A stretch of 64,000 nucleotides of DNA from positions 79,061-143,060 of IMG/VR virus record IMGVR_UViG_3300040758_000214; one strand, 5' to 3'. Within the stretch, counting starts at the first letter, position 1. Every line of letters starts with the position of its first letter. The stretch comes from a virus. The notes below the pieces were generated by a model that was given only the letters and a program-made list of their open reading frames with translations, searched no databases and was not told where the DNA came from. This document shows, one piece after another, positions 8,701-44,317 of this stretch. Made by a program: the position numbers and the translations under genes.

Positions 8701-8830
8701 AACCAAGTTCTTCAGCTGGAACTAATATTTGTCTAATCTTATTTTCTAAATCCTGATATTCATCTTTTCTAATTGTAAATATATTTTTGTTTAAATTGTG
8801 CAATTTGTAAAAAGGATTTATTAAGTCCAT
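5708..8830 (-). CDS. DNA-directed RNA polymerase beta subunit-like (phage set 1)
   Basis: GRVCPVDTPDRENCG, GYNFEDG, GDKIGNRHGNKG, PSRMNIGQ, GGQRAGEME motifs. Confidence 0.95.
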   Translation of the reverse strand: MDLINPFYKLHNLNKNIFTIRKDEYQDLENKIRQILVPAEELGFEIVDFGIRDHRFSMEGELDRTLKKNIVIKFKKLTAEINLSMSIPKLIDGNYFYINGKRKIPLFQLFDIPVVTRGKTIKIRTNCATLTVIEFKEEPFIRVSFLNKIVPLSLLLLSYYGLDYLDQKFGLKDMEYESPNTLIEKLVYDLKGYYDTSEDYSQDDFIKELGKFSSKYDPTQKGQDMIYALDIILKCDIMSSKFFRTQSILEELIDVIQSEKIDDTNYINKRIRCFEYIVLAKVSKTIFDFCMSNRTAKSPKFNINSTQILSDCNVSDIVQFDFSINPIDELTKLSRTSLVGPGGFDRENVPKHLRDITPSMFGRVCPVDTPDRENCGVLQNLIPNTILDSNLKFTDEYLELQPISIPVSLVPFLEHDDQTRLQMASSQMRQSICLTDFDIPMIQSGCEGLYTDQTQFVRRAKQNGEVIFLDSNHMIVVYDDKTVDIFDTFYRKIYVENLDLIDSIYFKVGDKFKAGDILIESSFCKNGKINIGKNLLTAVTSYDGYNFEDGILISDRLINGKDVFTSIHFIDLSFTLSPSKVLFNLPYRTKDELEEERRTKKKIYKPLPNPKATKSKSPLNFEVLKAGTPYAILKEIPSGPMDFSSIFEEAIPLTIKKQVVGVNEVNIYANEWNKEIPEFNDWVEKKIQSQIEYEKELQKPIYDSLPKDEALQFIRDHDLDKFSHTGKYKSKNEKINGMYVEMYGVYTRSIAVGDKIGNRHGNKGVISRIVPHDKMPRLEDGRHVDICINALGVPSRMNIGQIFELHLGLALENLKKQLIQMIDSDKSQDDIKSYLITFISMIDNTKGKWYSSQFIERVPLIVTKEFIEELTIIQPPFESCTKEMLKIAMEFTGSKYEQKVYLPEFDCFTENMIACGWMYFFRMLHIAESKMTARGIGLYMKKTLQPIGGGNTKRKGILNKGLKPPGGQRAGEMELACLIAQDATENLREILTTKSDCIDKKNQWIKQMIDSDHKETKVIDGCPETVKLLHNYLTVIGIQK

Positions 8831-9220: not shown

Positions 9221-11920
9221 TTAAAACTCCCCTAATAATATTTTGTCAAAAATTCCCTCATAGTTTCCAGAATTTAAAAGTCCCTTAATTATTGCAGATT
9301 TGGGATTCGAAAAAGCAATAGCAAGTAACCATGACTCATTTGTTGGAGCACTTTGGATTGAAAGGAACTTCGGTGTAACTTTATCTCTATTTTTCATTAA
9401 TCTCCATTTATAATGTCCGACCCACATTAATTGCGATACAATAGATTCAAAATGAACATGAAGTATTCCTTTGCTATTATTATAAACATCGAATAAATCA
9501 GAAACTAAATCTTCAGCAGTTTGGTCTTTTTTAAATTTATGGAATAAATCAGACACAATTTTTAAATCACTAATTACATCTGATTGTTCCATATCAACAG
9601 ATCCTTCTTTAATATTTGCTACACCTGATAAGTGGAAGGTACGTAAGGTCAATTGTGTAGTGCACTCCCCCAAAGATTGCGCTCCAAGGATACCTATATA
9701 CTTACTATCATTTAATTTATGAGTATTTCCATAACATGTTAGACAAATTTCTGGTGATGTGCAATATATTGGGCTTCTCACTTTTAACATTTGACCAACT
9801 AATTCTGAGCATTTATTTAATGTAATTAATTCTAATTTATCATTATTTAAATAATATTTATTCACTAACATTTTTGCTTTATTTAAATTTTTAACATATA
9901 CATTTAAATAATCTTTAGTTTCGCAATCCTTTAAATTTTTATTTAATAAAAGATTAACTCCAGTGAATATTAATTTTCTTGATAAATATCCAGAAGTTCC
10001 AGTATTTAAAGCAACATCTAATAATCCTTTTCTACAACCATAAGTTGAATTGAAGAATTCTTCTTCTGTTAATCCATCAAGTAAATTATTTTTAATTGCT
10101 TTAGGATATATTTCTCCATTAAAATTAGATACATATCCTCTGGTTAAAATCATTTGTTTTGCCTGATCCCAATTTCCACGAGCTCCTGAGTCAATTAAGT
10201 ACGAATACTCAAAATTTTCTCTTAATGAATTTTCAATTTCAGGACTTGATAATTTATTAATTTGAGTCATTATATCATTAGACTCATAAATTGAATCTTT
10301 CAATTCTTGAACATTTGGAATTTCACAATGATTTAGAGAAATAGTAGGAGCAAAAATTGTTGCATATTTGAATCCAACTTCTTTAATTTTATCTAGAGTT
10401 TGAACTGTTATATTTTCTGGCCAATTATTTTTAATACCATTTAATATTTTTATCAGATTCTTTTTTATAACTATTTCATTTATTACCGGAAAATCTTCTG
10501 GCAAACATTCATTAAAGATTTTCATTCCTTCTGTAATTTCAATTCCTTTATATACAACTTTATTTAATAATGATGAAATTTTATTAGATGTAAGTGCATA
10601 TAATCCCAATATTATATCTTGAGAAGGAACTGTAGCTAAACTTTCATTTGCAGGACTTGTTAAATTTTTAGTAACTATTAATTTATCTAATGTTTCTTGT
10701 TTTGTCTTTTCTGTGATGGGAATATACACAGCCATCTGGTCTCCATCAAAATCTGCATTGAATCCTGAGCAAACTAATGGATGAATTTTAATAACATTAT
10801 CTAATGAAGTTTTAATTTTAAATCCACAAATACTAAGTCTATGAAGAGATGGTTGTCTATTTAACAAACATACTTCACCTTTAACAATTTCAGAGATATC
10901 ATTGAATAAATCTGGTTTTTTCAATTCGATACAATTATCTATAAAATCAATTGCATCATTTAATAATTTAAATTTACTATGTTCTATTAATCTTTTTGCT
11001 AATGGTAATTTGAATAACTCTAAAACCATAACATATGGAAGAACACATTCATCTAAATTTAATTTTGGATCAGGAATAATAACTGCTCTTCCTGAGAAAT
11101 CAATTCTTTTACCTAATATATTTCCTCTTATTAATCCTTCTTTTTTACTAAGTTTTGTAACTATATGCGCATATAATTCATTTACATCTTTTTGTAATTG
11201 CCTAAAATATTGATAATAGAATTGTTTACTATGTTCTATATCTACAATTGTATTTTGCATTGTTTCTTTTTTTGTTAAAATTTGCATATAATATCTATTT
11301 ATTTCATCTACAATTTGATTATTCTTTTCAGATCCTTTTGCAGCTGGTCTTAAATCAGGTGGTAAAACTATAATATTTCTTATTAATAATGTATCAATAT
11401 TATCTCTAATTAATTTCCATGCAGGAATATCATCTGCTAATGCTATTGAAATTCCATTAACCATTTCATAAATTGCTTCAGTTCTTTCCCATATTCTACA
11501 TCCTGCTTTTACATTTTCTAATTCCTTTACTACAACATAATCATCTCCATCTTTATATAAAATACTTTTTTCATCTTTTAATAATAAGTCTATAGAATTC
11601 ATTAAAGATGAGCCACCTAAAGTGGTAAGTAAATCATAAAATACTGGATTCATAACTTTAATTGGAATTACAATTTTGGCAAATCTTCTTCTTCTTTCAT
11701 AACTATTTACAATATCAACTTGACATACATTACATGCTCCACCATCTGCTCTAGATATACCAAAGTAAGTTCCACACTGACAAGTATAGTTTCTTAATGG
11801 TCCAAAAATCTGTTCAGAAAATAAACCATTAGGATGATAATTCTTTTTGTCCATCATTTTAATGGATGAAACTTCCTTTAAATTTTCACAGAAAGCATTG
11901 ATGTTTAGAAGAGTTGGCAT
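9221..11920 (-). CDS. DNA-directed RNA polymerase beta' subunit-like (phage set 1)
   Basis: N-terminal Zn finger (CQC...CNVC), GKRIDFSGRAVI, NRQPSLH, catalytic NADFDGD, bridge helix TSGYLSRKL, trigger loop TQLTLRTFH. Confidence 0.95.
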   Translation of the reverse strand: MPTLLNINAFCENLKEVSSIKMMDKKNYHPNGLFSEQIFGPLRNYTCQCGTYFGISRADGGACNVCQVDIVNSYERRRRFAKIVIPIKVMNPVFYDLLTTLGGSSLMNSIDLLLKDEKSILYKDGDDYVVVKELENVKAGCRIWERTEAIYEMVNGISIALADDIPAWKLIRDNIDTLLIRNIIVLPPDLRPAAKGSEKNNQIVDEINRYYMQILTKKETMQNTIVDIEHSKQFYYQYFRQLQKDVNELYAHIVTKLSKKEGLIRGNILGKRIDFSGRAVIIPDPKLNLDECVLPYVMVLELFKLPLAKRLIEHSKFKLLNDAIDFIDNCIELKKPDLFNDISEIVKGEVCLLNRQPSLHRLSICGFKIKTSLDNVIKIHPLVCSGFNADFDGDQMAVYIPITEKTKQETLDKLIVTKNLTSPANESLATVPSQDIILGLYALTSNKISSLLNKVVYKGIEITEGMKIFNECLPEDFPVINEIVIKKNLIKILNGIKNNWPENITVQTLDKIKEVGFKYATIFAPTISLNHCEIPNVQELKDSIYESNDIMTQINKLSSPEIENSLRENFEYSYLIDSGARGNWDQAKQMILTRGYVSNFNGEIYPKAIKNNLLDGLTEEEFFNSTYGCRKGLLDVALNTGTSGYLSRKLIFTGVNLLLNKNLKDCETKDYLNVYVKNLNKAKMLVNKYYLNNDKLELITLNKCSELVGQMLKVRSPIYCTSPEICLTCYGNTHKLNDSKYIGILGAQSLGECTTQLTLRTFHLSGVANIKEGSVDMEQSDVISDLKIVSDLFHKFKKDQTAEDLVSDLFDVYNNSKGILHVHFESIVSQLMWVGHYKWRLMKNRDKVTPKFLSIQSAPTNESWLLAIAFSNPKSAIIKGLLNSGNYEGIFDKILLGEF

Positions 11921-11948: not shown

Positions 11949-12206
11949 TTAAAAATTTTCGATTATATATGTAGCTAATGCATTGAAGTGTTCTTTTACA
12001 ATTTGTGCTGTGATTTTATGTATCTCGGGAATAATTTCTTGAACTATTTCTTTTACTTCATCTCTTGTTAAAATTTCTCCTTTTTCTTCAAGAGCTATAT
12101 TTATTTTACTTTCAATTTCAGAATCTAATAATTCATAAAATGAATTTTTTGATTCTATTAATCCTTTATTTTTTTTCATCAGAAACTCCTTTAACCTGCT
12201 TTTCAA
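11949..12206 (-). CDS. hypothetical protein
   Basis: 85-aa ORF upstream of beta'. Confidence 0.55.
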   Translation of the reverse strand: MKSRLKEFLMKKNKGLIESKNSFYELLDSEIESKINIALEEKGEILTRDEVKEIVQEIIPEIHKITAQIVKEHFNALATYIIENF

Positions 12207-12348
12207 TTAATTTTTTTGTACGAATCGAAAAAACATCTACCATCATTCCGAAAGACTTATTCACAAACTTTTTTAAACTATCAGAAATATCATCAATTAA
12301 TTCATGAGCTGTTGTTTCTAATTTACTTTTTTCTTTATTATCAGGCAT
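12166..12348 (-). CDS. hypothetical protein
   Basis: 60-aa ORF overlapping neighbours. Confidence 0.5.
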   Translation of the reverse strand: MPDNKEKSKLETTAHELIDDISDSLKKFVNKSFGMMVDVFSIRTKKLIEKQVKGVSDEKK

Positions 12349-12844
12349 ATATCAATTTCTCCTTTTCTACATCATTTTCATCATAACCATTTATGTTCCA
12401 AATAAATCTTTTATTATTTTTTTGTTTTTCTTTATGAATTCTAAAACTAAAATTTTTTGGATCTGATATATTAATAAATTCAAAACAATTCCAATATGAT
12501 TTATAAAAGGTATTATAATTATAAGTTAAGAATTGATGTTCTATTATTTCTAAATCAGAATCTATTTCAAATAAATTTTGTTTAAAGAATTCTTGTATAC
12601 AAAATATATTGGTAACTGGATTTTTATTTGGGTGAGGATTTTTAAACATTATAGATTCCAAATATCCATTTTTTAATTTTATCTCATATTTATTAATAAT
12701 GAATTTATAAGGTATTTTTATTATTTCATATTTTTTTTCATTCTTAATTAATATTTTAGGAATAATGAAACAATTAACTTTTATATGAATGATATTGATC
12801 TTATTTTCAACACTTGCTTTAATCAATTCTATTTTGTTTAGCAT
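12341..12844 (-). CDS. putative E2/UBC-like protein
   Basis: PHPNKNPVTNIFCI resembles the UBC HPN-x7/8-C active-site signature; directly downstream of an E1-like gene. Confidence 0.45.
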   Translation of the reverse strand: MLNKIELIKASVENKINIIHIKVNCFIIPKILIKNEKKYEIIKIPYKFIINKYEIKLKNGYLESIMFKNPHPNKNPVTNIFCIQEFFKQNLFEIDSDLEIIEHQFLTYNYNTFYKSYWNCFEFINISDPKNFSFRIHKEKQKNNKRFIWNINGYDENDVEKEKLIYA

Positions 12845-12858
12845 AAGTATATGTCTCC

Positions 12859-13731
12859 TTATGCCGAAATAGTTTGAGTAATAATTTTTACTAAATATTT
12901 ATTCTGTCTTGCTAAAGGCATACAAACTCTATAAGTCATATTTTTATCTATTAACATTGATAAAATCTGTTCTCTAACATCATCAACATCTTTTAATTGT
13001 GTCATTCTTATTTCTTTTATATTTTCTTTTTTTTCATCTTTTAGAGAAAATAATATTGGAAACTTTTTATTTCTTTCTATAATATCGGATACATGAAGAT
13101 CTAAATCTTCTAATATTTCATCACTATCATGACTTTCAAATATAACATTGACTCCATCATTATAATTTTTAAATTCATAAAAGTCAGATTTTGTTAAATC
13201 TAAATCAATTGAATATAATTTTTTTAAATCTACTAATTCTTTAATCATTCCACTTTCAAAATATTGAGTAGCCATTAATGCAGCCATTTCAATTTTAGAT
13301 TTACTAAGTTCTACAGAATATCTTGTATTTACTAATGGCTTATATGTAATATTTTTTCTACAATCTAAAACTAAAAAATCCGAATATTGAAAATACATTT
13401 TAACATCAACTCTATTATTTCTATTATTAAAATTATCAGTGCAATCTATAATTAAATCAATATTATTCGGGATTATAGTATGATCTATAAAATTTGTTTT
13501 AGAAACAATAACTTTAATATCTTTATAATCTCTAAGTATTTTATTTCTAATTGGATAAACTTTTCCTTGCCCGATATCATTTTGATTATATAATGAATTA
13601 ATCAAATTTTTCTCATTGACAATATCTGAATCATATAATAATAATTCTTTAACACAACCAGATTTAGCTAAATGATATGAAAAGAAACTCCCCAACGATC
13701 CAACTCCAGCAATTAAAATCCTATTAAACAT
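12859..13731 (-). CDS. ThiF/E1-like adenylation-domain protein (divergent second copy)
   Basis: IAGVGSLG nucleotide-binding loop, DSDIVNEKNL, IIDCTDN. Confidence 0.8.
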   Translation of the reverse strand: MFNRILIAGVGSLGSFFSYHLAKSGCVKELLLYDSDIVNEKNLINSLYNQNDIGQGKVYPIRNKILRDYKDIKVIVSKTNFIDHTIIPNNIDLIIDCTDNFNNRNNRVDVKMYFQYSDFLVLDCRKNITYKPLVNTRYSVELSKSKIEMAALMATQYFESGMIKELVDLKKLYSIDLDLTKSDFYEFKNYNDGVNVIFESHDSDEILEDLDLHVSDIIERNKKFPILFSLKDEKKENIKEIRMTQLKDVDDVREQILSMLIDKNMTYRVCMPLARQNKYLVKIITQTISA

Positions 13732-13741
13732 AATACTCCTT

Positions 13742-13975
13742 CTACTGCTTGAAATTCTCCATCCGTTCTACAATATCATTAATTTCGCCTTGTAAAAACT
13801 TAACTTCTGACAAACTAAGTCTTCCTAGTTTTAAAAATTTTCCGTCATTTGATATTCTTGTCAATTGTAATTTAGGGGCTCCACCCTTATAAGAATAAAC
13901 TTCACCTTTAATATTAACATCATCTTCTAAAGGTTTAATTTCAAATAATAATTTGTCATCTTCTTGATTATACAT
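13742..13975 (-). CDS. small protein, possibly PC4/YdbC-like ssDNA-binding
   Basis: 'VYSYKGGAPKLQLTR...KLGRLSLSE' resembles the PC4-like pattern; weak. Confidence 0.4.
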   Translation of the reverse strand: MYNQEDDKLLFEIKPLEDDVNIKGEVYSYKGGAPKLQLTRISNDGKFLKLGRLSLSEVKFLQGEINDIVERMENFKQ

Positions 13976-13994
13976 TTATATCTCCTATGTTTAA

Positions 13995-14026
13995 TGAAAA
14001 GGGATATTTTTACATATCCCTTTTCA
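13995..14026 (-). terminator. intrinsic terminator-like hairpin
   Basis: TGAAAAGGGATAT...ATATCCCTTTTCA inverted repeat ending in a U-rich stem on the minus strand. Confidence 0.6.
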
Positions 14027-14045
14027 ATTTTATTAAACAACTTTA

Positions 14046-14507
14046 TTATTCGGAATAGATATCTATATGATCAGGCATGTATTCACTTTTGAATTGAAAA
14101 TATTTTGCTGCTACTTTTATGGGATAACTCTTTGGAACATCTATTTTTATTCCAGATTTATCATTTTTCTTTGCTGGACAAAATAATAAATTATTTTGAA
14201 TGGCTTCTTGTGCAGCTCTTTCTAATTTTTCAGAATCTGAAATAATAATTTTTTCAATCCAAAATTCAACATTCCTATCAGGGATTATTTCATATGAATT
14301 TTCTCCGCTCATTAAAGCTTTCATTGCTCTTCCAAAAGCAATATTTCTAGATTTCTTTCTAATATGATTATCTAGAATTGAACAGATAGAAATTCCCCTT
14401 GCAATTAATTTTCTATCTGCATCTTCAATTTCACATACTGTAAATGCATTATTTAGTATGTCAGTTTTTTTATATGAATATCTTATTCTTAGATTACTCA
14501 CGTCCAT
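14046..14507 (-). CDS. conserved phage hypothetical protein
   Basis: 'ARGISICSILD...SRNIAFGRA' pattern seen in phage proteins. Confidence 0.6.
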   Translation of the reverse strand: MDVSNLRIRYSYKKTDILNNAFTVCEIEDADRKLIARGISICSILDNHIRKKSRNIAFGRAMKALMSGENSYEIIPDRNVEFWIEKIIISDSEKLERAAQEAIQNNLLFCPAKKNDKSGIKIDVPKSYPIKVAAKYFQFKSEYMPDHIDIYSE

Positions 14508-14531
14508 ATCTATCTCCAGACTATGTTTTTT

Positions 14532-14563
14532 AGGGATGCATTACTTTAATATAATGCATCCCT
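14532..14563. other. stem-loop downstream of the Ubl gene (stabiliser or terminator)
   Basis: AGGGATGCATTA / TAATGCATCCCT perfect 12-bp inverted repeat; no U-tract on the minus strand. Confidence 0.55.
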
Positions 14564-14578
14564 TCCAATTAATAAAAA

Positions 14579-15223
14579 TTACCCTTTACGGCCACTAGTT
14601 TTCAGATATTCAAGATTATCATTTTCCTGAATAACATAATTCAATCCTACTTCTTTTCCACACGCAAGGGCACGAGGAATATTGCTACCAATATTCAGAA
14701 CTTCCTTAAGAAACTCTGCAACCTGTCCAACAGTTTTTCCGATTACATTAAAATTCCCAGAGGAAGCTCCACAAGAAACATGAATAGTGGATTTAATTCT
14801 ATCGGATGAAGAATTAGGATTAACAACAGTATTCTTCATTGTTATTTCCATCGTAGAAATACCACCAATTGACGGACCAGTAACTGTGGATCTTACAGGA
14901 GCACTAGCCACACCAATCTTAGAAAGAATAGCTGCAACTAATTCATCCTTAGGTTTTTTACTCATTCCAGAAATACTAAGTTCCTGACAAATTTCACGAA
15001 GATCAGAATTGGTCAACTCTAGAAGACCTTCTTTTGTATAACGAGGAGCTGTAGCAGAAGAAGTCTGATTGTTGGCGGTTGAACCAGCCTTGGATAAAAT
15101 TGCTTCCATGATAACATCTTTACGTGCTTTACTCATTCCAGTGATACCAAGACTCTGGCAAATTTCACGAAGCTCACCATTGGTTTTTTCAACTAATTCG
15201 CCATAATTATAAGTTCTTGCCAT
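14579..15223 (-). CDS. tandem Rho-N/HeH domains fused to a C-terminal ubiquitin-like (beta-grasp) domain
   Basis: Two repeats 'T..[ED]LREICQ.L.I[TS]GMSK..KD....AILSK'; C-terminal ~70 aa 'IHVSCG...KTVGQV...L...VIQENDNLEYLKTSGRKG*' ending in Gly. Confidence 0.8.
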   Translation of the reverse strand: MARTYNYGELVEKTNGELREICQSLGITGMSKARKDVIMEAILSKAGSTANNQTSSATAPRYTKEGLLELTNSDLREICQELSISGMSKKPKDELVAAILSKIGVASAPVRSTVTGPSIGGISTMEITMKNTVVNPNSSSDRIKSTIHVSCGASSGNFNVIGKTVGQVAEFLKEVLNIGSNIPRALACGKEVGLNYVIQENDNLEYLKTSGRKG

Positions 15224-15316
15224 TTGTAATTCTCCTATTCATTTTTTGGTTTTTACTACAATTAAAGTTATCCTTGTATAGAAAGGATTCTTAATTTAAA
15301 ATTGTATAATTTGGTC

Positions 15317-16006
15317 TTACTTTTTCAATTCTCTAGACTTTGAATCTACTTTCATTGTTGTAATGTCAAAATATGCTTCTGAGTTTTTATAATTTTCCTG
15401 CAATACATTATAAAACGCACAGCACATTAGTGTTGCCGCAGCTAAATTGGTAAAATATAATTGAGGTTCACCAGCTGCAGATAATTCTTGGCAACTCATT
15501 TCATCTGGTGATTTATCATCAGGTTCATCAATTTCTGGATGATAATCAGTCAAACTTGGCGTTAAATCTTCACCTCCTTTTCTTACATATATTTGAACAT
15601 TACCATCTACATAATCATTCCCCCCGGAGATTAATGTAATGTTGTTCAAACTTTTTGAATAATCTGATACAAGTTTTCTAGTTTTATGATTATCAACCGC
15701 TAAAAATACAGTATCACCATCTTCAATCAAAGTATCAATTACATCTTTATTTACATAAAATGGAAATGATTTAAATTCAATATTATTAAATTTAGATTGA
15801 AGTTCAAATGATTTCACTTGTGCCTTATTTCCCATATTGGAAAAATCTTGTCTTTCAAAATTTTTGGTTTCATATTCATCACCATCAATTAAAGTCACAT
15901 TTGCTTTGGTATTTGAATAATTAATAAACCTTGAAATTTTTTCTGATAAAATAGATCCAATTCCTCCTAATCCAATAATTTTAATCGTATGGCCAGAGTG
16001 GTACAC
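15317..16006 (-). CDS. ThiF/E1-like activating enzyme
   Basis: IGLGGIG, DGDEYETKNFERQ, AVDNHKTR, candidate catalytic Cys in EMSCQEL. Confidence 0.9.
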   Translation of the reverse strand: MYHSGHTIKIIGLGGIGSILSEKISRFINYSNTKANVTLIDGDEYETKNFERQDFSNMGNKAQVKSFELQSKFNNIEFKSFPFYVNKDVIDTLIEDGDTVFLAVDNHKTRKLVSDYSKSLNNITLISGGNDYVDGNVQIYVRKGGEDLTPSLTDYHPEIDEPDDKSPDEMSCQELSAAGEPQLYFTNLAAATLMCCAFYNVLQENYKNSEAYFDITTMKVDSKSRELKK

Positions 16007-17168
16007 TTATAAGCTCCTCTGTTTCTATAATTTTACTACGATCATCTTTTTCTTTTTTGGTTATAAATGTATCATCTTTTTTGCATTTTTTAATCATACC
16101 TAATAATTCTTTTTCATCTTTAGCAAACTTTAAATTACATTTATAACATGGATTAAAATATTTAGATTGTTGTGATTTAATGGCAGATGATGATATAGTT
16201 TGAGGTAAATTAGGTGTATGAATAGTTTTCTTTTGATTATACTCATGATCATCTACACCACCATTAACTCTATTCATATACCTATAAAACCACATATCAT
16301 TTTCAAGGTCATCATTTATATTTCCACCATATCCACCATCACTATAAAAACTATATCCATTATTATGTTGTCCATATCCTCCAAAACTATAAGCTTTTCT
16401 GAAATTATATTTCTCAACATTTATTAACCATTTTGGATCACATTCTACACTTGATAAATGTTGTGAAATTATATATCCTGTTGTAGTTTTCATTTCCTTT
16501 TGATAAACTTTTTCTTTCCCAATTACTTCATATTTTGGTCTAAACATTGACTTAAAATATTTTGTATATTCAGTTTTATAAACTCCATCAATATAATCCA
16601 ATGGATCAACTTCAACTCTATAACCATTTGACGCTATGGATGCTACAATTTTATGAGTATCAGAATCAATTTCTCCAACAGTAATATGCAAACCATCAAA
16701 ATCTTCTTCATCATGAGTATCTGTTCCAGAGTGAAAGGCGCTGAATCCTGGATGACTATGAATTGAACATACTGGTTGATAATTTTTTATAGATATCTGA
16801 TAATTATCTTCCACATTAACACTTGCTCCTGAAACTGATTGCTCTGGAATATGCACCTTAAATGCCTTTTTCTTTGGATTATAATAAATAATTGCTAATC
16901 CTTCTGCTCTATGCCCATGATATACTTTTTTGAAAAAGTCAAATATTTGTGCATATATAATTCCAGGAATTTTTGGAATATCCATTGATGCATAACATCC
17001 AATATCTTCTAGAAATGATATATTTTTTACTGGAACTAAACTATCTATTAATCCCATTTTTTTCTTTAAATATACACCACCTTTAGCGATAATATAACAT
17101 ATATCGTCTTTTGGCATTCCTTGTTCTTTATCAAATGTATATACATTAAACATACTATTATTAGACAT
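15981..17168 (-). CDS. JAB/MPN+ metallo-isopeptidase (prokaryotic JAB)
   Basis: JAMM motif E...HSHPGFSAFHSGTD (HxH-x7-S-x2-D). Confidence 0.9.
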   Translation of the reverse strand: MSNNSMFNVYTFDKEQGMPKDDICYIIAKGGVYLKKKMGLIDSLVPVKNISFLEDIGCYASMDIPKIPGIIYAQIFDFFKKVYHGHRAEGLAIIYYNPKKKAFKVHIPEQSVSGASVNVEDNYQISIKNYQPVCSIHSHPGFSAFHSGTDTHDEEDFDGLHITVGEIDSDTHKIVASIASNGYRVEVDPLDYIDGVYKTEYTKYFKSMFRPKYEVIGKEKVYQKEMKTTTGYIISQHLSSVECDPKWLINVEKYNFRKAYSFGGYGQHNNGYSFYSDGGYGGNINDDLENDMWFYRYMNRVNGGVDDHEYNQKKTIHTPNLPQTISSSAIKSQQSKYFNPCYKCNLKFAKDEKELLGMIKKCKKDDTFITKKEKDDRSKIIETEELISVPLWPYD

Positions 17169-19707
17169 TGAAAAACCTCCAGTCCTTTCTATAAATTCTT
17201 GGTAAATAATCTATGGGAATAAATCCACTTAAGAAATTTGGTAAAACATAAGTATACGTAGATGGTGCTTTGGCATTGGATTCAATAAATCTTTGTGTAC
17301 ATATACCAGACAACTTTTTGGATGAAATATTTTGTGTAGCATAGGTATAAGAATCGCATAATGCTGATTGAATATCTATAGACTCTTGTTTTGTTAATAC
17401 CAATTCTCTAATATTATTTTTATCAATGATTATATCTCCCGGTTGAAATTTAATATGATCAGTATTTTCAAAAATTGTAACTTTTAATTTCTTATAAACT
17501 GGATCCTCCCTATTTACAAATTTAAAATTCTTTAGATTTTCTTCTTCCATCCAAATTGCAGAATAATTAGAAGTTAGAATTAAAGGATATTTATCTGTAT
17601 CAACTAATATTGCCATGACTAAATGTGTATCTTTCTTTAAGAATAATGGAATTTTATTTACAGTTACAATTTTGTCTCCAACTGAAATTCCATTTAGATT
17701 AGTTACACATTTCCTAACTTTCTCTACAGAAATTATCATAGATCTAAAATCAATGTATTCAATACTTTTTATATTACCTTTACAATCTACAGTATCAATA
17801 TACATTTTAAATGTTTCTTTACAGAAATTAAATCCTGTTATATTTCTATGAATAAACATTTCTGGTGGATTATCCCAATCAACATAAATAATATTATCTC
17901 CAATTTTAAAATCAATATTAAAACATAATCCTTTTAATTGTATAGAATTATTATCTTTTAAAATTTCAGATTTTACTATATCTAATCTTTGTTCCATTAT
18001 AATCGAATCATTATTTCTAGAATTTTTAATCATTAGAATAATATTATTATTAGTTATATATAATTTATGATCATTTGTAATTTGGCAAATACTTTCTTTC
18101 AAATCATTGATTATAATTGTATTTCCATATGAGAAAATTGAAAGATTTTCTCTTTCATTCTCAACATGAGGAGCTATTCTATTATCTATATCAGAATGCT
18201 TAATATGATATAAGTTTTCTCCTAATTTAAATTGTAAATAAAATATCCCCCTAATTATTTCTGCTTTTTCAAAAGTTATTATAGCATTTCCAAATATAAT
18301 TGATGCTCTAGTTCTTGATTTACCTTTATCTACATATAAGTTTCCTTTCTTAAAATTAATATTATTTATAGTTAAATCTTCTGGATTTATTATTTCTATA
18401 TTCTTTAATGATTCTAAAATATAATAATCAGTTCCAATTAAAAATTCTATTTTTCCTCTTCTATTACTTCTAATTTTCTCAATTTTCTTAAATTCTTTAA
18501 CTTCAGAATTTTTATCAATACAAATTATATCTCCTATTTTATAAATTATTCCATTCAATTCATACTCAGTTAAAATATTTTCTTTATTATATGTATTTTT
18601 TATTGCAGATAATAAAGAACTATCACTTATTTTATATTTAACAAATTCTCCTTTTGAATTCTCTAACATTACTCCACTTATAGTACTAGAATCTATAAAT
18701 GATTGTTTAGTTGCTGGATCTATTTTTATAGTCCCTAAAAATTCATAGATATAATGTTTTTCATCATTAATTACAATTTCATCTCCAATTCCTAATGCAT
18801 GTTCATCTGTGAAATAATGACTTTGACAATGTGATGTGACAGTTTTTGGATCTAATTTAACAGAAGGAATATTACATATCATATCTATAGTATCTTTAAA
18901 TAAATATGCTCCAGCATTATCAATATTACTTCTATCCCCACCATTAAAATTTCTAGTCAAATCTTGTATTTCTGAAATGATATTAAAATTAAATGTTTTC
19001 CATTTTGTAGAAAATATAAACATAGGATCAATTGATGTATTATATTCCCAATGTAAAAATGATGAAACTTCTGGTACATCATTATACATATTATAAACAT
19101 ATGTAATATCACCATTGAATTGATTAGCCCAAAATGCATTAATTAATTCTTCTACTTTTTCTCCTAATGATAGATTAGTATTTTTGGCATTATTTGGACC
19201 TAAACATACATGACCATTAGAGTCAAGATTTGTAAAATTTGCATGTAATAAATAATCATGAAATGATGACATTGGGTGTAATCTAAAAAATACTCTAAGT
19301 TCTTTAGGGCAATCATCCAAAAATGCAAGGAAGAAAACTACATATGGAAATGATAAATTAAAATAATAAGGAGGTTTATTTTTTAGAAAGTCGGAATAAC
19401 CATACTCTTTTAATCTTCCAGTTCGTCTTAAATTTTCTATAACAGTATCGAATTGTAAATCAACACAAATATTTCTTATAGCAGGAGGTTCTTCAATAAT
19501 TAAATATGTATAATTTTCAATTTGTTTGTAAAACCTACAGTTTCTAGGTAAAATATCAGATTGAATATTGTTTGAGGCATATAATCTATCATAAAAATCT
19601 TTAGTTTTAATATGTTTTACTTCTGAAAGAACATTAAATGTATCTGAATTTTCTGTTAATGGTTTTACTAAACGAACTTCATTTTGATTAATTAAAATAT
19701 GTTCCAT
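17161..19707 (-). CDS. large protein with N-terminal prokaryotic E2-like domain
   Basis: 'SFPYVVF...LLHANFTNLDSNGHVCLG...FWANQFN' matches the prokaryotic E2 pattern; position immediately upstream of JAB, E1 and Ubl genes. Confidence 0.7.
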   Translation of the reverse strand: MEHILINQNEVRLVKPLTENSDTFNVLSEVKHIKTKDFYDRLYASNNIQSDILPRNCRFYKQIENYTYLIIEEPPAIRNICVDLQFDTVIENLRRTGRLKEYGYSDFLKNKPPYYFNLSFPYVVFFLAFLDDCPKELRVFFRLHPMSSFHDYLLHANFTNLDSNGHVCLGPNNAKNTNLSLGEKVEELINAFWANQFNGDITYVYNMYNDVPEVSSFLHWEYNTSIDPMFIFSTKWKTFNFNIISEIQDLTRNFNGGDRSNIDNAGAYLFKDTIDMICNIPSVKLDPKTVTSHCQSHYFTDEHALGIGDEIVINDEKHYIYEFLGTIKIDPATKQSFIDSSTISGVMLENSKGEFVKYKISDSSLLSAIKNTYNKENILTEYELNGIIYKIGDIICIDKNSEVKEFKKIEKIRSNRRGKIEFLIGTDYYILESLKNIEIINPEDLTINNINFKKGNLYVDKGKSRTRASIIFGNAIITFEKAEIIRGIFYLQFKLGENLYHIKHSDIDNRIAPHVENERENLSIFSYGNTIIINDLKESICQITNDHKLYITNNNIILMIKNSRNNDSIIMEQRLDIVKSEILKDNNSIQLKGLCFNIDFKIGDNIIYVDWDNPPEMFIHRNITGFNFCKETFKMYIDTVDCKGNIKSIEYIDFRSMIISVEKVRKCVTNLNGISVGDKIVTVNKIPLFLKKDTHLVMAILVDTDKYPLILTSNYSAIWMEEENLKNFKFVNREDPVYKKLKVTIFENTDHIKFQPGDIIIDKNNIRELVLTKQESIDIQSALCDSYTYATQNISSKKLSGICTQRFIESNAKAPSTYTYVLPNFLSGFIPIDYLPRIYRKDWRFFNV

Positions 19708-19743
19708 AATGTATTCACCCTTTCACGATTCAATAATTTGGTT

Positions 19744-20046
19744 TTATTTTTTAATATAGAATCTTTCTTTTGTTGGTGTTTCTAAATATTCAACTCTATC
19801 ATATGGAATACTTCTCCATTCTTTCTTTTCTAAATCAAAAACTCTAAGGATATTTTGTTTTACTAAATTTAATATTGCTGCTAAATCAACTTTTTTAGGT
19901 TGTTTTATTTTTGGAATCAAATCAAATTGTAAAGTACATTTCATCATCCTTATTGTTTTATCTTTTTTAATAAATCTAATTATCACTTCTGGTTGTGTTC
20001 TTATAATCTTTAAAAAATCAATTGCATTATTTATTGGTTCATTCAT
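19744..20046 (-). CDS. WYL-like (WYL_2 / SH3 beta-barrel) protein
   Basis: 'IRFIKKDKTIRMMKCTL...VFDLEKKEWRSI' signature. Confidence 0.8.
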   Translation of the reverse strand: MNEPINNAIDFLKIIRTQPEVIIRFIKKDKTIRMMKCTLQFDLIPKIKQPKKVDLAAILNLVKQNILRVFDLEKKEWRSIPYDRVEYLETPTKERFYIKK

Positions 20047-20052: not shown

Positions 20053-21078
20053 TTAAACTCCTCTTTTTTCTGTATGAAGTATTTCATCTTTATTATCGGA
20101 CAAGTTCGTGTGGAGAACACAGGTCCAATTACATCTAAGACAAAGTTCTTTCTTATCCCTTTTAATTAAATCTAAGAATAAAGGATTTATTTTTCCATCG
20201 TAATCCAAGAAATTTGTAACTGAAGCAGATGTAGTATGTCTTCCACCAATCCTGAGGCATAATCTACATGCTCCATCCGCGTCAATTGTGATATTTGTTA
20301 AATTCTTTTCTAATTCACAATCATATTCACTTGGTAATATCTCAAATAATTTTGGTAATAATTTATCTGCCATATGAACATCTAATTTTTCATCTATTAT
20401 TCTTTTAAATATGTCAGATAATTCTTTTGTTGGTTTGACTAAAACATTTTCATCTGTAACATTTGCAAAATCATAATATGGAGATTTAGAAATATCTATA
20501 AATGTAATATCAGATGATATTCCATTATTTGAAAGTTCTTTAACTAATGGATAAAGATATTTAACATTGTCATTATCAACTGTTATTTCTGCAACCAAAT
20601 CTTTTATTTTTCCTTTTAAACTCTTAAGTCTATTAAACCCTGCAATGCATTTTTTGTATCTATCATTGTCTTTAGATATATTAGGATCAAATATTAAAGG
20701 ATCTACGGAACTTGATAAACCTTTCACCTCTACTTTTTCTAAAAGATCATTTAATGATTTCTGAACTGAATTTGAATTATTTGTGATAATTGTATAATAT
20801 ATATCATTTGAATTACAATATGCAATTATTTGTGGTAAATCATTTCTTAATAAGGGTTCTCCTCCATAGAAAATATGAAAGCAATCTGGGTTATGTTTTT
20901 TTAGTTTAGATAATCCCTCAAGTACTGTTTTGGTTGACATTTCATTCTTATAAAAATGCCCAATATCAGGATATTCTCTTGGTTTATTTTCATAGTCAGA
21001 TACTATTCTACAGTATGAACATTTTAAATTACAACGTCTTGTTAATAACCAATTTACTATTCTTATTTTATCTGCCAT
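20053..21078 (-). CDS. radical SAM protein with C-terminal Cys cluster (SPASM/Twitch-like)
   Basis: CNLKCSYC (CxxxCxxC), GGEP, C-terminal C...CRLC...CLRCNWTC. Confidence 0.9.
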   Translation of the reverse strand: MADKIRIVNWLLTRRCNLKCSYCRIVSDYENKPREYPDIGHFYKNEMSTKTVLEGLSKLKKHNPDCFHIFYGGEPLLRNDLPQIIAYCNSNDIYYTIITNNSNSVQKSLNDLLEKVEVKGLSSSVDPLIFDPNISKDNDRYKKCIAGFNRLKSLKGKIKDLVAEITVDNDNVKYLYPLVKELSNNGISSDITFIDISKSPYYDFANVTDENVLVKPTKELSDIFKRIIDEKLDVHMADKLLPKLFEILPSEYDCELEKNLTNITIDADGACRLCLRIGGRHTTSASVTNFLDYDGKINPLFLDLIKRDKKELCLRCNWTCVLHTNLSDNKDEILHTEKRGV

Positions 21079-21840: not shown

Positions 21841-24039
21841 CTACTTTTTATTAAAGAAACTCAAAACTTCGTCAGCTTCTATAGAATCTATATGTCTATG
21901 ACTTATTAAAAATATAGATTTATCCTTTGCTAAATATCTTAATATCTTAGACACATAACCTATATTTTCATCATCTAATGCATCAAAGATTTCATCAAAT
22001 AACATTATGTTGAATTTAACATCTTGAACTAAACATTGTAAATCTGATAATGTTAAAATTGTTGCAATATCTACAACTCTTGTTTGCCCTCCAGATAATT
22101 TTTTTCTCATATTTGCTTTAGTTTGTGTGTCTAAAACATTTACAGAAATCTTATCTCTAAATTCTCCAGACTTAGTTTCTCTCATGGTATCGAAAGATAC
22201 AATATATCTTCCTCCACTAATTTTCTCAAGATATTCTGAAACCTTACTGTTCATAAAGGGAATAGATTCATCTATTAATATATTAGGAATACCAGAAGGA
22301 GAGAACCCAATCTTCCAAAATTCAACCATTGTGATTAATTCTGATTGTTCTATAATTGACTTTTTCAACTCTTCTAATTCTTTAGTCAATTCAACTTTTC
22401 TATGAGTTAAAGATTCTAAAATTTCTTCATCAAATTTATCACTTTCTTTACTATTTAATTGAGTTTTAATAGATTCAATTGTCAATTTAATTTTATTAAA
22501 ATTTTCTACTTTTTTTTTCTTTTCAGTATATTGAGTTAAATAATTTACTAATTCATTATTTAATTCTAAACCTTTTTGTTTTACTGAATATACATTTTGG
22601 GTATAAGTCTTTTCTATTGTTTCTTTACATTCAATTAATTTATTTGATAGTTTTCCATATGCTTCTTTTAATTTATCTCCAATCTCTTTTATTTTATTTT
22701 TAGCATCTTCTTCAATAATATTTAATTTTTCTTTTAAATCTCTTTCATGTTCTCTTATAAGAATATCTAAATCTTCAATATCATGTAATAAACATTTAAC
22801 ATCCATTGATAAATTAGATTTTTGATCTCTTAATACTTTAACTTCTTCATCTTTTTTATTAAGATGATCCTTTATATGTATTAACTTATCTTGCCCCACA
22901 ACTTGTTGGCATAATTCACAAACAACTTCATCCTTATTCAAAGTGTCTATTAAACTTTTTATCTCTTTTTCTAATTTACTAATCTCTAAATCTGTTCTTT
23001 GAATATTCCTTTTATTATTTTCTAATGATACATTCATATTACTTTTTAGTATTTTATATTTATTTACTACTTCTTGTTGAGTTGATAAATCTTTTATTTT
23101 ATTATTTGATTCTAATTCAATTTCAGATTTTTGACTTGTGGCCTGATTTTTAAATTCTGATTGTTTTAATTGAACTTTAGCTTCTATATCTTTTATTTGA
23201 TTTATTTTTTCTTGTTCAAACTTTTGTAATTGATTTTTCCAATTCTCTATCTCAATTTTTAAATTTGTAATCTTATTTTCAATATTATCTTTTTCTAAAT
23301 ATTTTAATTCTTTATCTAAATTTGAATATGTATCATTTTCCTGTTTTAATTTGATCTTTAGTTCTTCTATATCTAATTTTTTTCTTTTATTAAATTCTTC
23401 TTTTTGTGATATTACATTTTTAATTTGATTAGTAGTTTCTTGTATTAAATTATTTGTAACTTCTTGTTTAGTTTTAGATTTTTCAAATTCAATTTCTAAT
23501 CCTTTTAATTTCTTATCTGCTTTTTTATAATAATCTACATATTCTTCCAATTGAAGGATCATTCTGAATATAGCCTTTTGATCCGTATCACCTAAGTCTG
23601 TAAAAAACGTTTTGCATTTTTGTGAGAAATAAAGAACATTCATAAGTAATTTTTGAGGGAGAATTAATTTTTCAATTTCTTCTAAAAATTCTTTATGTCC
23701 ACGTTTTATATTTTCACCATTTTTTGTTAATATTACTGTATTACCAAATTTCTTATGTTCACAATATCTGTCAGCTCTATATTTATCATTTCCTTCGAAC
23801 CATGTCACCCATGTGTGACAATTACTTCCAATCTTATCATTAACACAATCACTTCCAACCAAATCTTTTGAGGTCCTATTGTATAATGTATATGGGAGAA
23901 TATCGAAAATTGTTGATTTGCCGCTTCCGTTTGGCCCCGTAATCAACGTAAGGGCCCCAGATCTTATGTCTAAAATAATAGGTGATATATAGTTACAAAA
24001 ATTTTCAGCTCCAAATTGGATAAAATTTATGCTTCGCAA
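21841..24039 (-). CDS. SbcC/Rad50-like ATPase (T4 gp46-like)
   Basis: GPNGSGKS Walker A, coiled coil with CELC Zn hook, LSGGQ signature, FDEIFDALD, SH switch. Confidence 0.93.
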   Translation of the reverse strand: MRSINFIQFGAENFCNYISPIILDIRSGALTLITGPNGSGKSTIFDILPYTLYNRTSKDLVGSDCVNDKIGSNCHTWVTWFEGNDKYRADRYCEHKKFGNTVILTKNGENIKRGHKEFLEEIEKLILPQKLLMNVLYFSQKCKTFFTDLGDTDQKAIFRMILQLEEYVDYYKKADKKLKGLEIEFEKSKTKQEVTNNLIQETTNQIKNVISQKEEFNKRKKLDIEELKIKLKQENDTYSNLDKELKYLEKDNIENKITNLKIEIENWKNQLQKFEQEKINQIKDIEAKVQLKQSEFKNQATSQKSEIELESNNKIKDLSTQQEVVNKYKILKSNMNVSLENNKRNIQRTDLEISKLEKEIKSLIDTLNKDEVVCELCQQVVGQDKLIHIKDHLNKKDEEVKVLRDQKSNLSMDVKCLLHDIEDLDILIREHERDLKEKLNIIEEDAKNKIKEIGDKLKEAYGKLSNKLIECKETIEKTYTQNVYSVKQKGLELNNELVNYLTQYTEKKKKVENFNKIKLTIESIKTQLNSKESDKFDEEILESLTHRKVELTKELEELKKSIIEQSELITMVEFWKIGFSPSGIPNILIDESIPFMNSKVSEYLEKISGGRYIVSFDTMRETKSGEFRDKISVNVLDTQTKANMRKKLSGGQTRVVDIATILTLSDLQCLVQDVKFNIMLFDEIFDALDDENIGYVSKILRYLAKDKSIFLISHRHIDSIEADEVLSFFNKK

Positions 24040-24065: not shown

Positions 24066-24815
24066 TTATTTTACTTTAATTATTTTTCGTCCAAGAATCC
24101 ATTCTTCATTTAAATAATTATATACTAATTCTCTTTTAACCATTTTTGATTTATTTGTTTTAATATTTAAAATCCAACAAAATCCTGAAGTTGAAAATTT
24201 AGATTTATCATATAATTCTTTTGCATGGGCAGAAACATGGGAACTATTGGTCATTAATTCCAAATTTTCTATTCTATTATCATCTTTAATTCCATTTATA
24301 TGATGTACCACTTCATCTTTAGTTAAATATCTCCCTATATGTTGTTCCATTATAAAACGATGCTCCAGTATAAAATTTCCTCTAGAATAAGGGTGATTCT
24401 CAATATATATTAAAATATATCCATCACCATCAACAAATCTTCCACCTTTCCAATTGGGATTTTTATTTCCTTTATTTAATCCTTTTAATGATGCTTTATA
24501 TTCTTCTGATAATTTTTTATGAGGTTTATGTTTTCCACCTTTTCTACATTTAGAACATTTTGAACCAGCTAAATGATTATTTGGAAATTGTTCAAATATA
24601 CCATGAATCTTACATATTATTTTTACTTTAATTCCTTGATTAACATACACTGTTTCAGAATAATTAAATAAATCACCATGTATTTCTTTTGCTTTTTTAA
24701 TAAACAACTCAGTATTATATAATTTACTTGATATAACTGACACATGATGATTAAATAAAAATCTATTCTTTTCATTAGTTACTTCCCCACCACAACCACA
24801 TTCACATAATTTCAT
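24066..24815 (-). mobile_element. free-standing HNH homing endonuclease
   Basis: CECGCG N-terminus, DUF723-like 'IICKIHG.F.Q....HL.G..C..C', HNH 'EHR..ME..GR.L...EVVHHING.K.DNR.ENLEL'; lies between sbcD and sbcC. Confidence 0.85.
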
Positions 24816-43800: not shown

Positions 43801-43877
43801 TGGTCCGGGTTACTGGATTTGAACCAATGGCCCTCTGCGCCCAAGGCAGATGCGCTACCAGACTGCGCTAAACCCGG
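43801..43877 (-). tRNA. tRNA-Pro(UGG)
   Basis: Cloverleaf CCGGGTT...TCTGC-CTTGGGC-GCAGA...TTCAAAT...AACCCGG-A-CCA. Confidence 0.95.
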
Positions 43878-43894
43878 ATAAATACTTAATTTTA

Positions 43895-44250
43895 TCCCCA
43901 CCCCTACCTTGGGAATTGGATCGTTTCATCAAAGTCCATGTGGGTATTCCAAGGACGGCTCCACCGAAATTGGCATCCCGGCTTCATTGCCTCCCCACTA
44001 TCCTATAATGGATCATTCTGATGATTAGGGTATAGAATATCAACCGGTCTCAATTTCTACTTTTCGACTAAGATGGTGGAGTCGAAATATTTACTACCCC
44101 GATTTGTCAACCCTTTTAGGTCGATGGCTGCCAATACCGGTCTATTGTCAAGGGTCTGACTTAGATCGACATTTGATCATGAGCTTTGCGCCGTTGTTAC
44201 AAGGCACGCTCTGACGATGGGGTGTAATTTAATCATACCCACACAAGGAC
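43895..44250 (-). ncRNA. candidate large structured ncRNA (~350 nt)
   Basis: GC-richer ORF-free segment; terminal CACCCC/GGGGTG pairing, internal hairpins, promoter motif upstream. Confidence 0.55.
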
Positions 44251-44317
44251 AATGATATGATTATAGAAATGAATGTTGAATTCCATGATCTAAACTTTAA
44301 AACCCTTCATTCTAAAA

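Follow-up and report, generated by a model that had tools for sequence, protein, structure and literature searches.

A predicted ubiquitin-like protein-conjugation cluster conserved beside the RNA polymerase genes of a jumbo-phage lineage

Introduction

What would a bacteriophage do with a full set of ubiquitin-like conjugation enzymes? The question was raised by a 64,000-nucleotide stretch of DNA (positions 79,061 to 143,060 of IMG/VR virus record IMGVR_UViG_3300040758_000214; hereafter the window), which forms the final 64 kb of the 143-kb record of an uncultured peat-soil jumbo phage. A sequence-only reading of the window had proposed that a cluster of genes directly upstream of phage RNA polymerase (RNAP) genes encodes a ubiquitin-like modifier (Ubl), ThiF-type activating enzymes (E1), E2-like conjugating enzymes, and a JAB/JAMM deconjugating protease, giving the phage both the writers and the eraser of a protein tag. 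In the computational analysis described here, all open reading frames (ORFs) named in that reading were found on the minus strand and tightly packed, with every listed motif in place (Table 1). Profile or fold evidence supported each of Ubl, E1, E2-like enzyme, and JAB, and the claim that the phage carries a full set of writer and eraser parts therefore stood.

We consider it likely that the cluster is a phage-encoded ubiquitin-like protein-conjugation pathway, a prediction made from sequence and structural models. The catalytic residues of E1a (the first of the two ThiF proteins), JAB, the large E2-like protein, and a second, small E2-like protein (the mini-E2) were intact in the window and conserved across 40-60 orthologues.

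The modifier, its activating enzyme, and the JAB protease

The 214-aa Ubl was composed of Rho-N/HeH domains at residues ~7-50 and 64-103, a disordered, low-confidence linker, and a beta-grasp domain at residues ~143-214, ending in S-G-R-K-G with a free Gly214. The beta-grasp fold expected for the C-terminus was supported both by Pfam family matches and by a fold search. Among 24 family members, TGS was matched by 19, ThiS by 13 (best 2.2e-4), Ub-Mut7C by 10, and ThiS-like by 5. The structural neighbours of residues 143-213 of the AlphaFold2 (AF2) model were all beta-grasp modifiers (MoaD, Atg12, Fubi, ISG15, and SAMP1; Z 4.7-5.7), while residues 5-51 aligned to the Rho N-domain (Z 8.7, root-mean-square deviation 1.4 A, 47 aligned residues) and also to LEM domains. 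A search of the PDB with the Ubl profile returned Rho N-domains only. Two HeH domains were present in the window Ubl and one in most relatives, and the ESM Atlas clusters of the family were 98-100% viral. G211, K213, and G214 were invariant in the phage proteins and in homologues from metagenome-assembled genomes (MAGs), making the G-x-K-G tail the hallmark of this Ubl family. Cys151, within VSCGAS, was considered as a site of radical-SAM crosslinking or redox chemistry and rejected, as its counterpart is Ser or Thr in clade-mates and Tyr, His, or Ser in MAG homologues.

E1a matched ThiF over nearly its full length (model positions 23-224 of 238). The window protein carried GLGGIG, NFERQ, and EMSCQEL, and the motifs expected of an E1 were invariant in 37 sequences: G12xGGxG17, D41-G-D43, N49..R52-Q53, D105, and C172, the last within MSC.EL. 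E1a is a probable Ubl-adenylating enzyme on the basis of these conserved residues.

The JAB gene overlapped the E2 gene by 8 nt. Its product contained the motif HSHPGFSAFHSGTD and a complete JAMM set, in agreement with its assignment as a JAB peptidase, and E89, H137, H139, S147, D150, and both cysteines of a C-terminal CxxC (C341 and C344) were conserved to at least 90% across 61 orthologues. The N-terminal 120 residues were also conserved, the protein matching PRTRC_A (TIGR03735) from model position 29 (positions 29-188 of 192, E 7.2e-7).

The large E2-like protein

An E2-like N-terminus had been proposed for the 848-aa protein from the stretch NLDSNGHVCLG, which corresponds to residues 160-170, and the family evidence upheld it. 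Twenty metagenomic homologues were found at 25-39% identity, and 15 of the 20 family members matched PF14460 Prok-E2_D (best E 2.2e-7), while five matched PRTRC_B (TIGR03737; best E 1.9e-4). No Pfam match was obtained with the full 848-aa protein at E <= 0.1, and a PDB search with the profile of the family had no match at E <= 1. N160, C168, W193, N198, and D200 were invariant in the 20-member alignment. The spacing from N160 to C168 was 8 residues, the same distance that separates the Asn and Cys of the HPN..C loop in classical E2s. In MAGs and in other phages, homologues of only 220-380 aa covered residues 50-265, indicating that this stretch is the conserved, Prok-E2_D-type E2 domain. After C168 the family conserved FW..FN.D and W..(D)P.F.

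The remaining C-terminal region of ~580 aa was beta-rich and had no detectable relatives in Pfam or the PDB; a weak internal repeat was seen between residues 302-361 and 597-652 (hhalign probability 57%). This region is a candidate for a built-in substrate adaptor.

The second ThiF-like protein and the mini-E2

The second E1-like gene was borne out in part, as its product (E1b) contained the Rossmann half of ThiF (residues 4-104) but neither the R-Q pair nor the C-terminal ThiF half. GxGxxG, D34xD36, N42, K57, and D96 were retained, NS stood in place of R-Q, and similarity to E1a (hhalign probability 96.6%) was confined to the first 105 residues. A complete adenylation domain comprises the Rossmann half, R-Q, and a C-terminal half that binds the Ubl tail; with the Rossmann half only and no R-Q, E1b is unlikely to be an activating enzyme in its own right. 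The other 185 residues were unrelated to ThiF, and a fused beta-grasp domain, sought there with Pfam and hhalign, was not detected.

E1b was present in 65 loci, and its orthologues (in L006-L069) always stopped at one point, behind the tail [YF][IV]EL[IL]-P-E-T-G-[AGS]-A. Gly occupied position -3 in 56 of 58 and Ala position -1 in 57 of 58. The window protein ends in TQTISA and that of L028 in PQTISA; the Gly has been lost from the window protein, as from its closest relative. No such conservation was seen at the termini of E1a, JAB, WYL, or the mini-E2. The possibility that the tail merely encodes the ribosome-binding site of the next gene was rejected: codons varied synonymously, indicating that the constraint acts on the protein, and a Shine-Dalgarno-like motif occurred in only 36 of 64 loci. 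In appearance the tail resembles a conjugatable end, although no beta-grasp was detected in E1b with Pfam or hhalign.

The mini-E2 gene, whose start lies 14 nt past the E1b stop codon, had been flagged from its HPN-x-C motif. Its 45 homologues were mostly ~110 aa long, and H71, N73, and C82 were invariant and P72 nearly so, in line with the UBC/E2 pattern of an HPN motif with the catalytic Cys 7-9 residues further on. In at least 60 of 65 loci the gene after E1b was an HPN..C ORF, including 9 of the 13 in which phmmer had missed the mini-E2. When the AF2 model (mean pLDDT confidence score 83.6) was searched, with no prefilter, against 48,161 representative chains, the top 24 rows were all E2 or ubiquitin-conjugating (UBC) enzymes (Z 5.0-3.5, ~100 aligned residues), ranking above Cap2, BubCD, RWD, and UEV; the top Foldseek matches were also E2s, albeit weak (E ~0.2). 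Given the uniformity of this list and the presence of HPN..C, a minimal UBC-like fold is probable, as had been suggested for this ORF. The hhalign comparison of the mini-E2 with the large E2 was not significant (0.7%), and the sole aligned stretch paired HPN..C with PN..N..C. A complex prediction for E1b and the mini-E2 scored 0.00, which counts neither for nor against their pairing.

Conservation in the phage lineage

The E2-family profile found 70 viral contigs (IMG/VR jumbo phage) of up to 277 kb. About 64 of the 70 had an identical gene order: Metallophos, SbcC-like, radical SAM, WYL_2, E2, JAB, E1a, Ubl, variable ORFs where present, E1b, mini-E2, the 85-aa ORF, beta', and beta. As protein identity across the syntenic loci was only 25-60%, this arrangement is not due to chance, and its near-universal synteny shows that the cluster is a core block of a jumbo-phage lineage rather than an accessory island. 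The WYL_2 gene was found in 64 loci and the radical SAM gene in 63, and the beta'/beta genes adjoined the cluster in 64. A second viral group (L072-L075) carried the short E2, JAB, E1, and Ubl only.

The WYL-like protein was assigned to WYL_2 (Table 1), as the sequence-only reading had it. It was missing from the MAG cassettes, except in two mis-binned phage contigs (see below), and is a syntenic upstream neighbour whose part in the system is only putative. The radical SAM gene was likewise a neighbour in the phage clade only, and was not found beside the simpler MAG or Bacillus-phage cassettes.

DNA nearly identical to the window was present in metagenomes of peat and wetland from numerous studies, with nine runs containing at least half of the sampled words. 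Among GenBank phages, neither the 8-kb DNA of the cluster nor the 848-aa protein had a match.

Relatives in metagenome-assembled genomes and cultured phages

A scan with the E1a profile, covering one genome per prokaryotic species, yielded 80 MAG loci. The full phage block was present in two MAG contigs, L076 (DAOVGR010000079.1, labelled Thermoplasmatales archaeon) and L077, and a 4.9-kb contig, L078 (DXJL01000071.1, labelled Heimdallarchaeota archaeon), carried a long E2 of 866 aa with JAB and E1a. All three are most likely phage contigs mis-binned into MAGs and give no evidence for archaeal hosts. The remaining loci consisted of a four-gene core, in the order E2-JAB-E1-Ubl or Ubl-E2-JAB-E1, from Patescibacteria, Planctomycetota, Acidobacteriota, Methylomirabilota, Chloroflexia, and others, several of them on contigs of megabase size. 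Four MAG loci (L094, L091, L125, and L143) had a tandem array of two to four short E2-like genes with a single JAB-E1-Ubl set downstream, an arrangement that suggests a diversified carrier or target-selection step.

Across the wider family, ..[FV][VI][KR]x[AS]G-x-K-G was a constant motif of the Ubl, and about one third of the genes extended 1-46 residues beyond the Gly. Such extensions indicate a precursor trimmed by the partner protease, tying JAB functionally to the Ubl; the window Ubl, whose gene ends at Gly214, needs no processing.

The E1a profile also found ThiF genes in the cultured Bacillus jumbo phages vB_BauM_KLEB27-3, vB_BceM_WH1, and Edson, and in large plasmids of Bacillus and Clostridium. 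In KLEB27-3 (L156, OM634661.1), gp194 was the ThiF protein (E 1.7e-28 to the E1a profile), gp195 a JAB with a PRTRC_A note in its record, gp196 a short E2 (E 4.7e-14 to the short-E2 profile), and gp199 a Ubl precursor ending in ..AGVKG plus 7 residues. The same ThiF-JAB-short E2-Ubl set was present on a phage-like 235-kb B. thuringiensis plasmid (L004), on which a 526-aa protein was rejected as an E2 homologue while its 253-aa neighbour is one. Only ThiF is annotated in the Bacillus records, apart from the PRTRC_A note. These cassettes share ThiF, JAB, E2, and a G-x-K-G Ubl precursor with the window cluster but differ from it in their short E2, in having no E1b/mini-E2 pair, in not lying beside RNAP genes, and in an E1 identity of only 29-36%.

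Gene neighbourhood and expression signals

The record is 46% complete (CheckV), and from its length of 143 kb the full phage genome is probably ~300 kb. The window has a G+C content of ~27%, and nearly all of its genes lie on the minus strand. Transcription would run from the radical SAM gene through WYL_2, the 848-aa E2, JAB, E1a, Ubl, two variable ORFs, E1b, and the 167-aa HPN..C ORF, and then through two short ORFs, beta', a 113-aa ORF, and beta. The two short ORFs and beta'/beta were thus found downstream of the cluster, as had been described. The cluster genes were close-packed, with overlaps or spacings of 8-36 nt.

Table 1. Features of the window, listed in the direction of transcription for the cluster, followed by hairpins and other features. 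Domain rows are indented under their protein by name.
Feature	Position (nt)	Strand	Evidence or remark
Radical SAM protein, 341 aa, SPASM/twitch maturase type	20053-21078	minus	Radical_SAM E 5.5e-10; PapB-family E 6.7e-14 over 5-307/330
WYL_2 (Sm/SH3-like) protein, 100 aa	19744-20046	minus	PF10902 E 1.4e-8; phrog_1086 E 1.4e-14
E2-like enzyme, 848 aa	17161-19707	minus	family matches to Prok-E2_D
E2-like enzyme: E2 domain, ~residues 50-265	18913-19560	minus	Prok-E2_D type
E2-like enzyme: C-terminal region, ~580 aa	17164-18912	minus	beta-rich
JAB/JAMM metalloprotease, 395 aa	15981-17168	minus	Prok-JAB E 2.9e-5
ThiF-type E1 (E1a), 229 aa	15317-16006	minus	ThiF E 1.5e-18
Ubiquitin-like modifier (Ubl), 214 aa	14579-15223	minus	Rho_N E 3.4e-15, two stretches; beta-grasp C-terminus
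Ubl: beta-grasp domain, ~residues 143-214	14582-14797	minus	
Variable-insert ORF, 153 aa	14046-14507	minus	present in 21/~70 loci
Variable-insert ORF, 77 aa	13742-13975	minus	present in 14/~70 loci
Second ThiF-like protein (E1b), 290 aa	12859-13731	minus	ThiF E 1.7e-15, residues 4-104 only
Mini-E2 (HPN..C), 167 aa	12341-12844	minus	motif and AF2 model
Two short ORFs, 60 aa and 85 aa	11949-12348	minus	85-aa ORF at 11949-12206, kept in 50 loci between mini-E2 and beta'
RNA polymerase beta', unsplit	9221-11920	minus	Rpb1 domains; directly downstream of cluster
RNA polymerase beta, unsplit	5708-8830	minus	Rpb2 domains; 113-aa ORF separates beta' from beta
Hairpin, 11-bp stem	14533-14562	minus	directly 3' of Ubl stop codon; read from sequence
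Hairpin, 13-bp stem	13995-14026		directly 3' of 153-aa ORF
SbcC-like ATPase	21841-24039		upstream of cluster
HNH endonuclease	24066-24815		PF13392, E 9e-14
Metallophos/SbcD-like	24839-25849		upstream of cluster
Type II topoisomerase A/B subunit genes	32499-33809, 34467-36266		
Six tRNA genes, clustered	43801-51685		includes unusual tRNA-Asn(ATT) call at 50612-50690
Second unsplit RNAP set	54719-61878	minus	
Second set: beta-like, 1374 aa	54719-58843	minus	
Second set: beta'-like, 780 aa	59536-61878	minus	

On the coding strand, neither of the two hairpins had a T-run behind it, and the one behind the Ubl gene was not called in a consensus terminator scan; both may be phage-RNAP terminators or RNA stabilisers. 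The motif AAACATAG, which follows both hairpins, was set aside as chance (4 observed against 3.9 expected). A sigma-70 promoter scan gave no excess over shuffles.

Elsewhere in the window, a second RNAP set was encoded, so that there are two sets, as in phiKZ- and AR9-type phages, but with undivided subunits. Between the SbcC-like and SbcD-like genes lay an HNH endonuclease gene that was found there in just 3 of ~70 related loci, and which is therefore probably a mobile homing endonuclease inserted into the SbcCD pair. Genes for both subunits of a type II topoisomerase and a group of six tRNA genes were also present.

Comparison with known systems

Class 6d cassettes were described by Iyer, Burroughs, and Aravind in 2006 as a Ubl, a JAB with a JAB-N domain, an E1-like protein, an E2-like protein, and an alpha-helical protein (PMC1779556). 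In that description, the Ubl is a small beta-grasp protein with a conserved terminal Gly, JAB-N is an extra alpha+beta domain with a conserved Arg and Trp, the E2 is without the classical HPN His and has an absolutely conserved His after the Cys, and the fifth, alpha-helical protein is rapidly diverging with conserved charged residues; B. cereus and B. thuringiensis are among the organisms in which the class was recorded (PMC1779556). The phage cluster resembled class 6d in its four tightly linked core parts, a beta-grasp Ubl with a terminal Gly, a complete ThiF-type E1, and an E2 family with Prok-E2_D matches, a conserved Cys, and no classical HPN His. The conserved N-terminal region of the phage JAB is a candidate JAB-N, in which the diagnostic Arg and Trp were not identified; the published Bacillus replicons also agree with the B. 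thuringiensis plasmid match found here. The E2-like family of class 6d later became Prok-E2_D in Pfam. The phage version differed in being a syntenic jumbo-phage core with an E2 fused to a C-terminal region of ~580 aa, in a Ubl fused to one or two HeH/Rho-N domains, in the addition of a Rossmann-only ThiF and a mini-E2, and in having no conserved His after the E2 Cys.

The comparison with PRTRC-type cassettes of plasmids and integrative elements, which the sequence-only reading had drawn, held as remote homology of JAB, ThiF, and E2 family members, but membership was not supported by the curated cut-offs of the NCBIfam models (TIGR03734-TIGR03742). JAB scored 28.9 bits against PRTRC_A (cut-off 101.8) and E1a 35.9 bits against PRTRC_ThiF (E 4.7e-9, cut-off 144.75), and the window's own 848-aa protein did not match PRTRC_B. 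There were no matches to PRTRC_C, D, E, or F, and none to ParB, in the cluster or in the MAG cassettes, and the chromosomal MAG homologues were also far below the PRTRC cut-offs. ParB_N (PF02195) was found neither in the cluster and its 10-kb flanks nor in the rest of the 143-kb record (~46% complete), and no PRTRC_C sequence was found in 201 genomes of one order or in two MAGs reached through loci L115 and L125. As all PRTRC scores were far below the cut-offs and PRTRC_C, ParB, and PRTRC_D-F were missing, the cassette is not a PRTRC member, and judged by its sequences it would work like a 6d/PRTRC-type conjugation cassette.

Bil (bacterial ISG15-like, class 6e) and type II CBASS conjugation are host defences (Chambers et al., PMC10557695; PMC10097602). 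Bil has a separate E1, E2, Ubl, and JAB-type deubiquitinase, as here, and provides the strongest experimental proof that a Ubl is attached to lysines by bacterial operons of this sort. Work on the Bil anti-phage system was reportedly also carried out by Hör et al. in 2024. Bil is host-owned and has phage tail proteins as its targets; E1, E2, and Ubl are of other families there, and the Ubl is a tandem beta-grasp, whereas the set described here is phage-owned and its Ubl has heads of a DNA-binding type. Type II CBASS, with Cap2 (an E2-E1 fusion) and Cap3 (a JAB), shares the E1, E2, and JAB chemistry, and the ThiF proteins of the window matched the PADLOC CBASS 'E1-E2' models partially, in the E1 region only. 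PADLOC found no cyclase and no effector at the cluster, and unlike CBASS it has no CD-NTase or effector, keeps E1 and E2 separate, and includes a dedicated beta-grasp Ubl. The ..ETG[AG]A tail of E1b orthologues is similar to the CD-NTase tail, the conjugated end in CBASS, by resemblance only.

The ThiS-ThiF and MoaD-MoeB pairs are alike in that the Ubl domain is nearest to MoaD/ThiS in sequence and fold and the ThiF is compact; the cluster differs from them in its E2-like enzymes and JAB, its G-x-K-G rather than GG tail, and the lack of sulfur-relay partners. Neither a rhodanese nor a cysteine desulfurase (Aminotran_5) was found in the record (46% complete), nor a ThiG/MoaE-type partner in the cluster. 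The closest precedent among viruses is the report of ThiF/E1-like genes in the Asgard-archaeal 'Nidhogg' viruses, for which a link to ubiquitin-type modification has been proposed (bioRxiv 10.1101/2021.07.29.454249). For the Nidhogg viruses only E1-like genes were reported, with the proposal that they hijack host E2 and Ubl, whereas the whole set is virus-encoded here.

No description of a phage-encoded complete E1-E2-Ubl-JAB set was found in the literature searched, including two jumbo-phage reviews (PMC7824862, PMC13282480). The suggestion of an undescribed system needs qualifying: the architecture is that of class 6d, and a related cassette exists in Bacillus jumbo phages. The cassette appears to be a divergent, elaborated phage relative of the 6d/PRTRC-type cassettes and is not wholly undescribed.

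Proposed mechanism and alternative explanations

In the predicted pathway, E1a would adenylate Gly214 of the 214-aa modifier, and a thioester relay would then pass the modifier to Cys168 of the 848-aa E2, possibly via Cys172 of E1a or Cys82 of the mini-E2. The long, beta-rich C-terminal region of the E2 would pick the targets as a built-in E3-like adaptor, the modifier would be joined to target lysines by an isopeptide bond, and the tagged protein would then be held on nucleic acid (DNA or RNA) by the modifier's two HeH/Rho-N heads. JAB would remove the tag and, in relatives with residues after the Gly, would also mature the precursor. E1b and the mini-E2 may form a clade-specific accessory branch, with a scaffold or inactive E1 partner and a second carrier enzyme. 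As the block is a syntenic core lying between repair genes and the phage RNAP, its most likely function is in a DNA- or transcription-centred programme of the phage itself and not in optional counter-defence; its position between the SbcCD-like genes and the RNAP set fits a role in DNA or transcription without proving one.

A bolder form of this pathway, which we regard as rather improbable, would be a eukaryote-like relay in which E1a works with E1b as a degenerate scaffold and the mini-E2 hands the modifier to the giant E2, acting as its own E3. The HeH tag would be stapled to phage or host proteins associated with DNA or transcription, such as one of the phage RNAPs, and would control genome organisation or a switch of transcription programme; the ..ETG[AG]A tail of E1b orthologues, compared with the CD-NTase tail in CBASS, would be a possible second conjugatable end.

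Several observations weigh against the conjugation pathway or parts of it. The N-terminal 275 residues of the window's own E2-like protein, searched alone, reached only E 0.074 and 13.2 bits against Prok-E2_D (cut-off 25), the sole family listed. The His after the Cys that is a feature of 6d E2s had no invariant counterpart after C168, whether among the 20 aligned members or among 49 short forms. The fold-search Z scores were modest for the Ubl domain (<= 5.7) and for the mini-E2, and both results persuade by the uniformity of their match lists rather than by height. With half of the ThiF fold gone, any role given to E1b is guesswork, and the tethering to nucleic acid is suggested by the HeH domains alone. 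In the literature searched, no characterised member of the 6d/PRTRC class was found.

Other explanations of the same genes have to be weighed. The cluster might be a counter-defence, its JAB stripping host Ubl or CD-NTase conjugates of Bil or type II CBASS, or its E1, E2, and Ubl acting as decoys or tagging defence proteins. Host Ubl-type defences do use homologous E1, E2, and JAB proteins, the ThiF proteins did match CBASS models in PADLOC, and inhibitors of encountered defences are common in phages. We nevertheless regard this as unlikely: a fixed syntenic core in ~64 of 70 loci is not patchy, a deconjugase alone would suffice where the phage instead has a dedicated Ubl with a family-specific tail, and the observed resemblance to Bil or Cap3 did not go further than the general JAB fold. 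That nothing is transferred, and that E1, E2, and JAB only process, cyclise, or self-attach the HeH-Ubl, which would itself be the product (such as a DNA-coating or nucleoid protein), was given an equally small chance. No E3 or target could be identified, the Ubl has a functional, DNA-binding domain of its own, and the partner of the long E2 tail could be Ubl or DNA instead of a substrate; yet an ATP-dependent E1 and a Cys-bearing E2 are hard to explain across 70 lineages without a transfer step, and the window Ubl already ends at Gly.

A sulfur-carrier role, which the sequence-only reading had set against conjugation, would have the Ubl thiocarboxylated by ThiF and donating sulfur, for example with the radical SAM enzyme in the modification of nucleic acid or a cofactor. 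Sulfur carriers trimmed by a JAMM protease are known from CysO/Mec and QbsE/QbsD, the Ubl domain is nearest to MoaD/ThiS, and synteny with the radical SAM gene holds in 63 loci. A sulfur carrier would have no use for two conserved, Cys-bearing E2-like proteins, however, and its tail would not be expected to be G-x-K-G rather than GG or its carrier to bear heads of a DNA-binding type. The missing rhodanese, desulfurase, ThiG, and MoaE partners (in a record 46% complete), the lack of a radical SAM gene beside the simpler MAG and Bacillus-phage cassettes, and the unconserved Cys of VSCGAS point the same way. Owing to the two E2-like proteins, the non-GG tail, the lack of relay enzymes, and the radical SAM gene missing from simpler cassettes, we hold this role to be very unlikely and retain protein conjugation as the explanation of the cluster.

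Significance

Experimental demonstrations of Ubl conjugation in prokaryotes have so far come only from anti-phage defences of the host, Bil and type II CBASS. Here a virus owns the complete writer/eraser set, fixed across a large jumbo-phage lineage, and such a fixed core set implies that protein tagging would be part of the phage's own infection programme. We found no described counterpart of a tag with DNA-binding heads, which suggests that proteins may be covalently tethered to nucleic acid. The 6d/PRTRC cassettes have been without a known function since 2006, and the cultured Bacillus jumbo phages that carry a related cassette offer a tractable laboratory entry to it.

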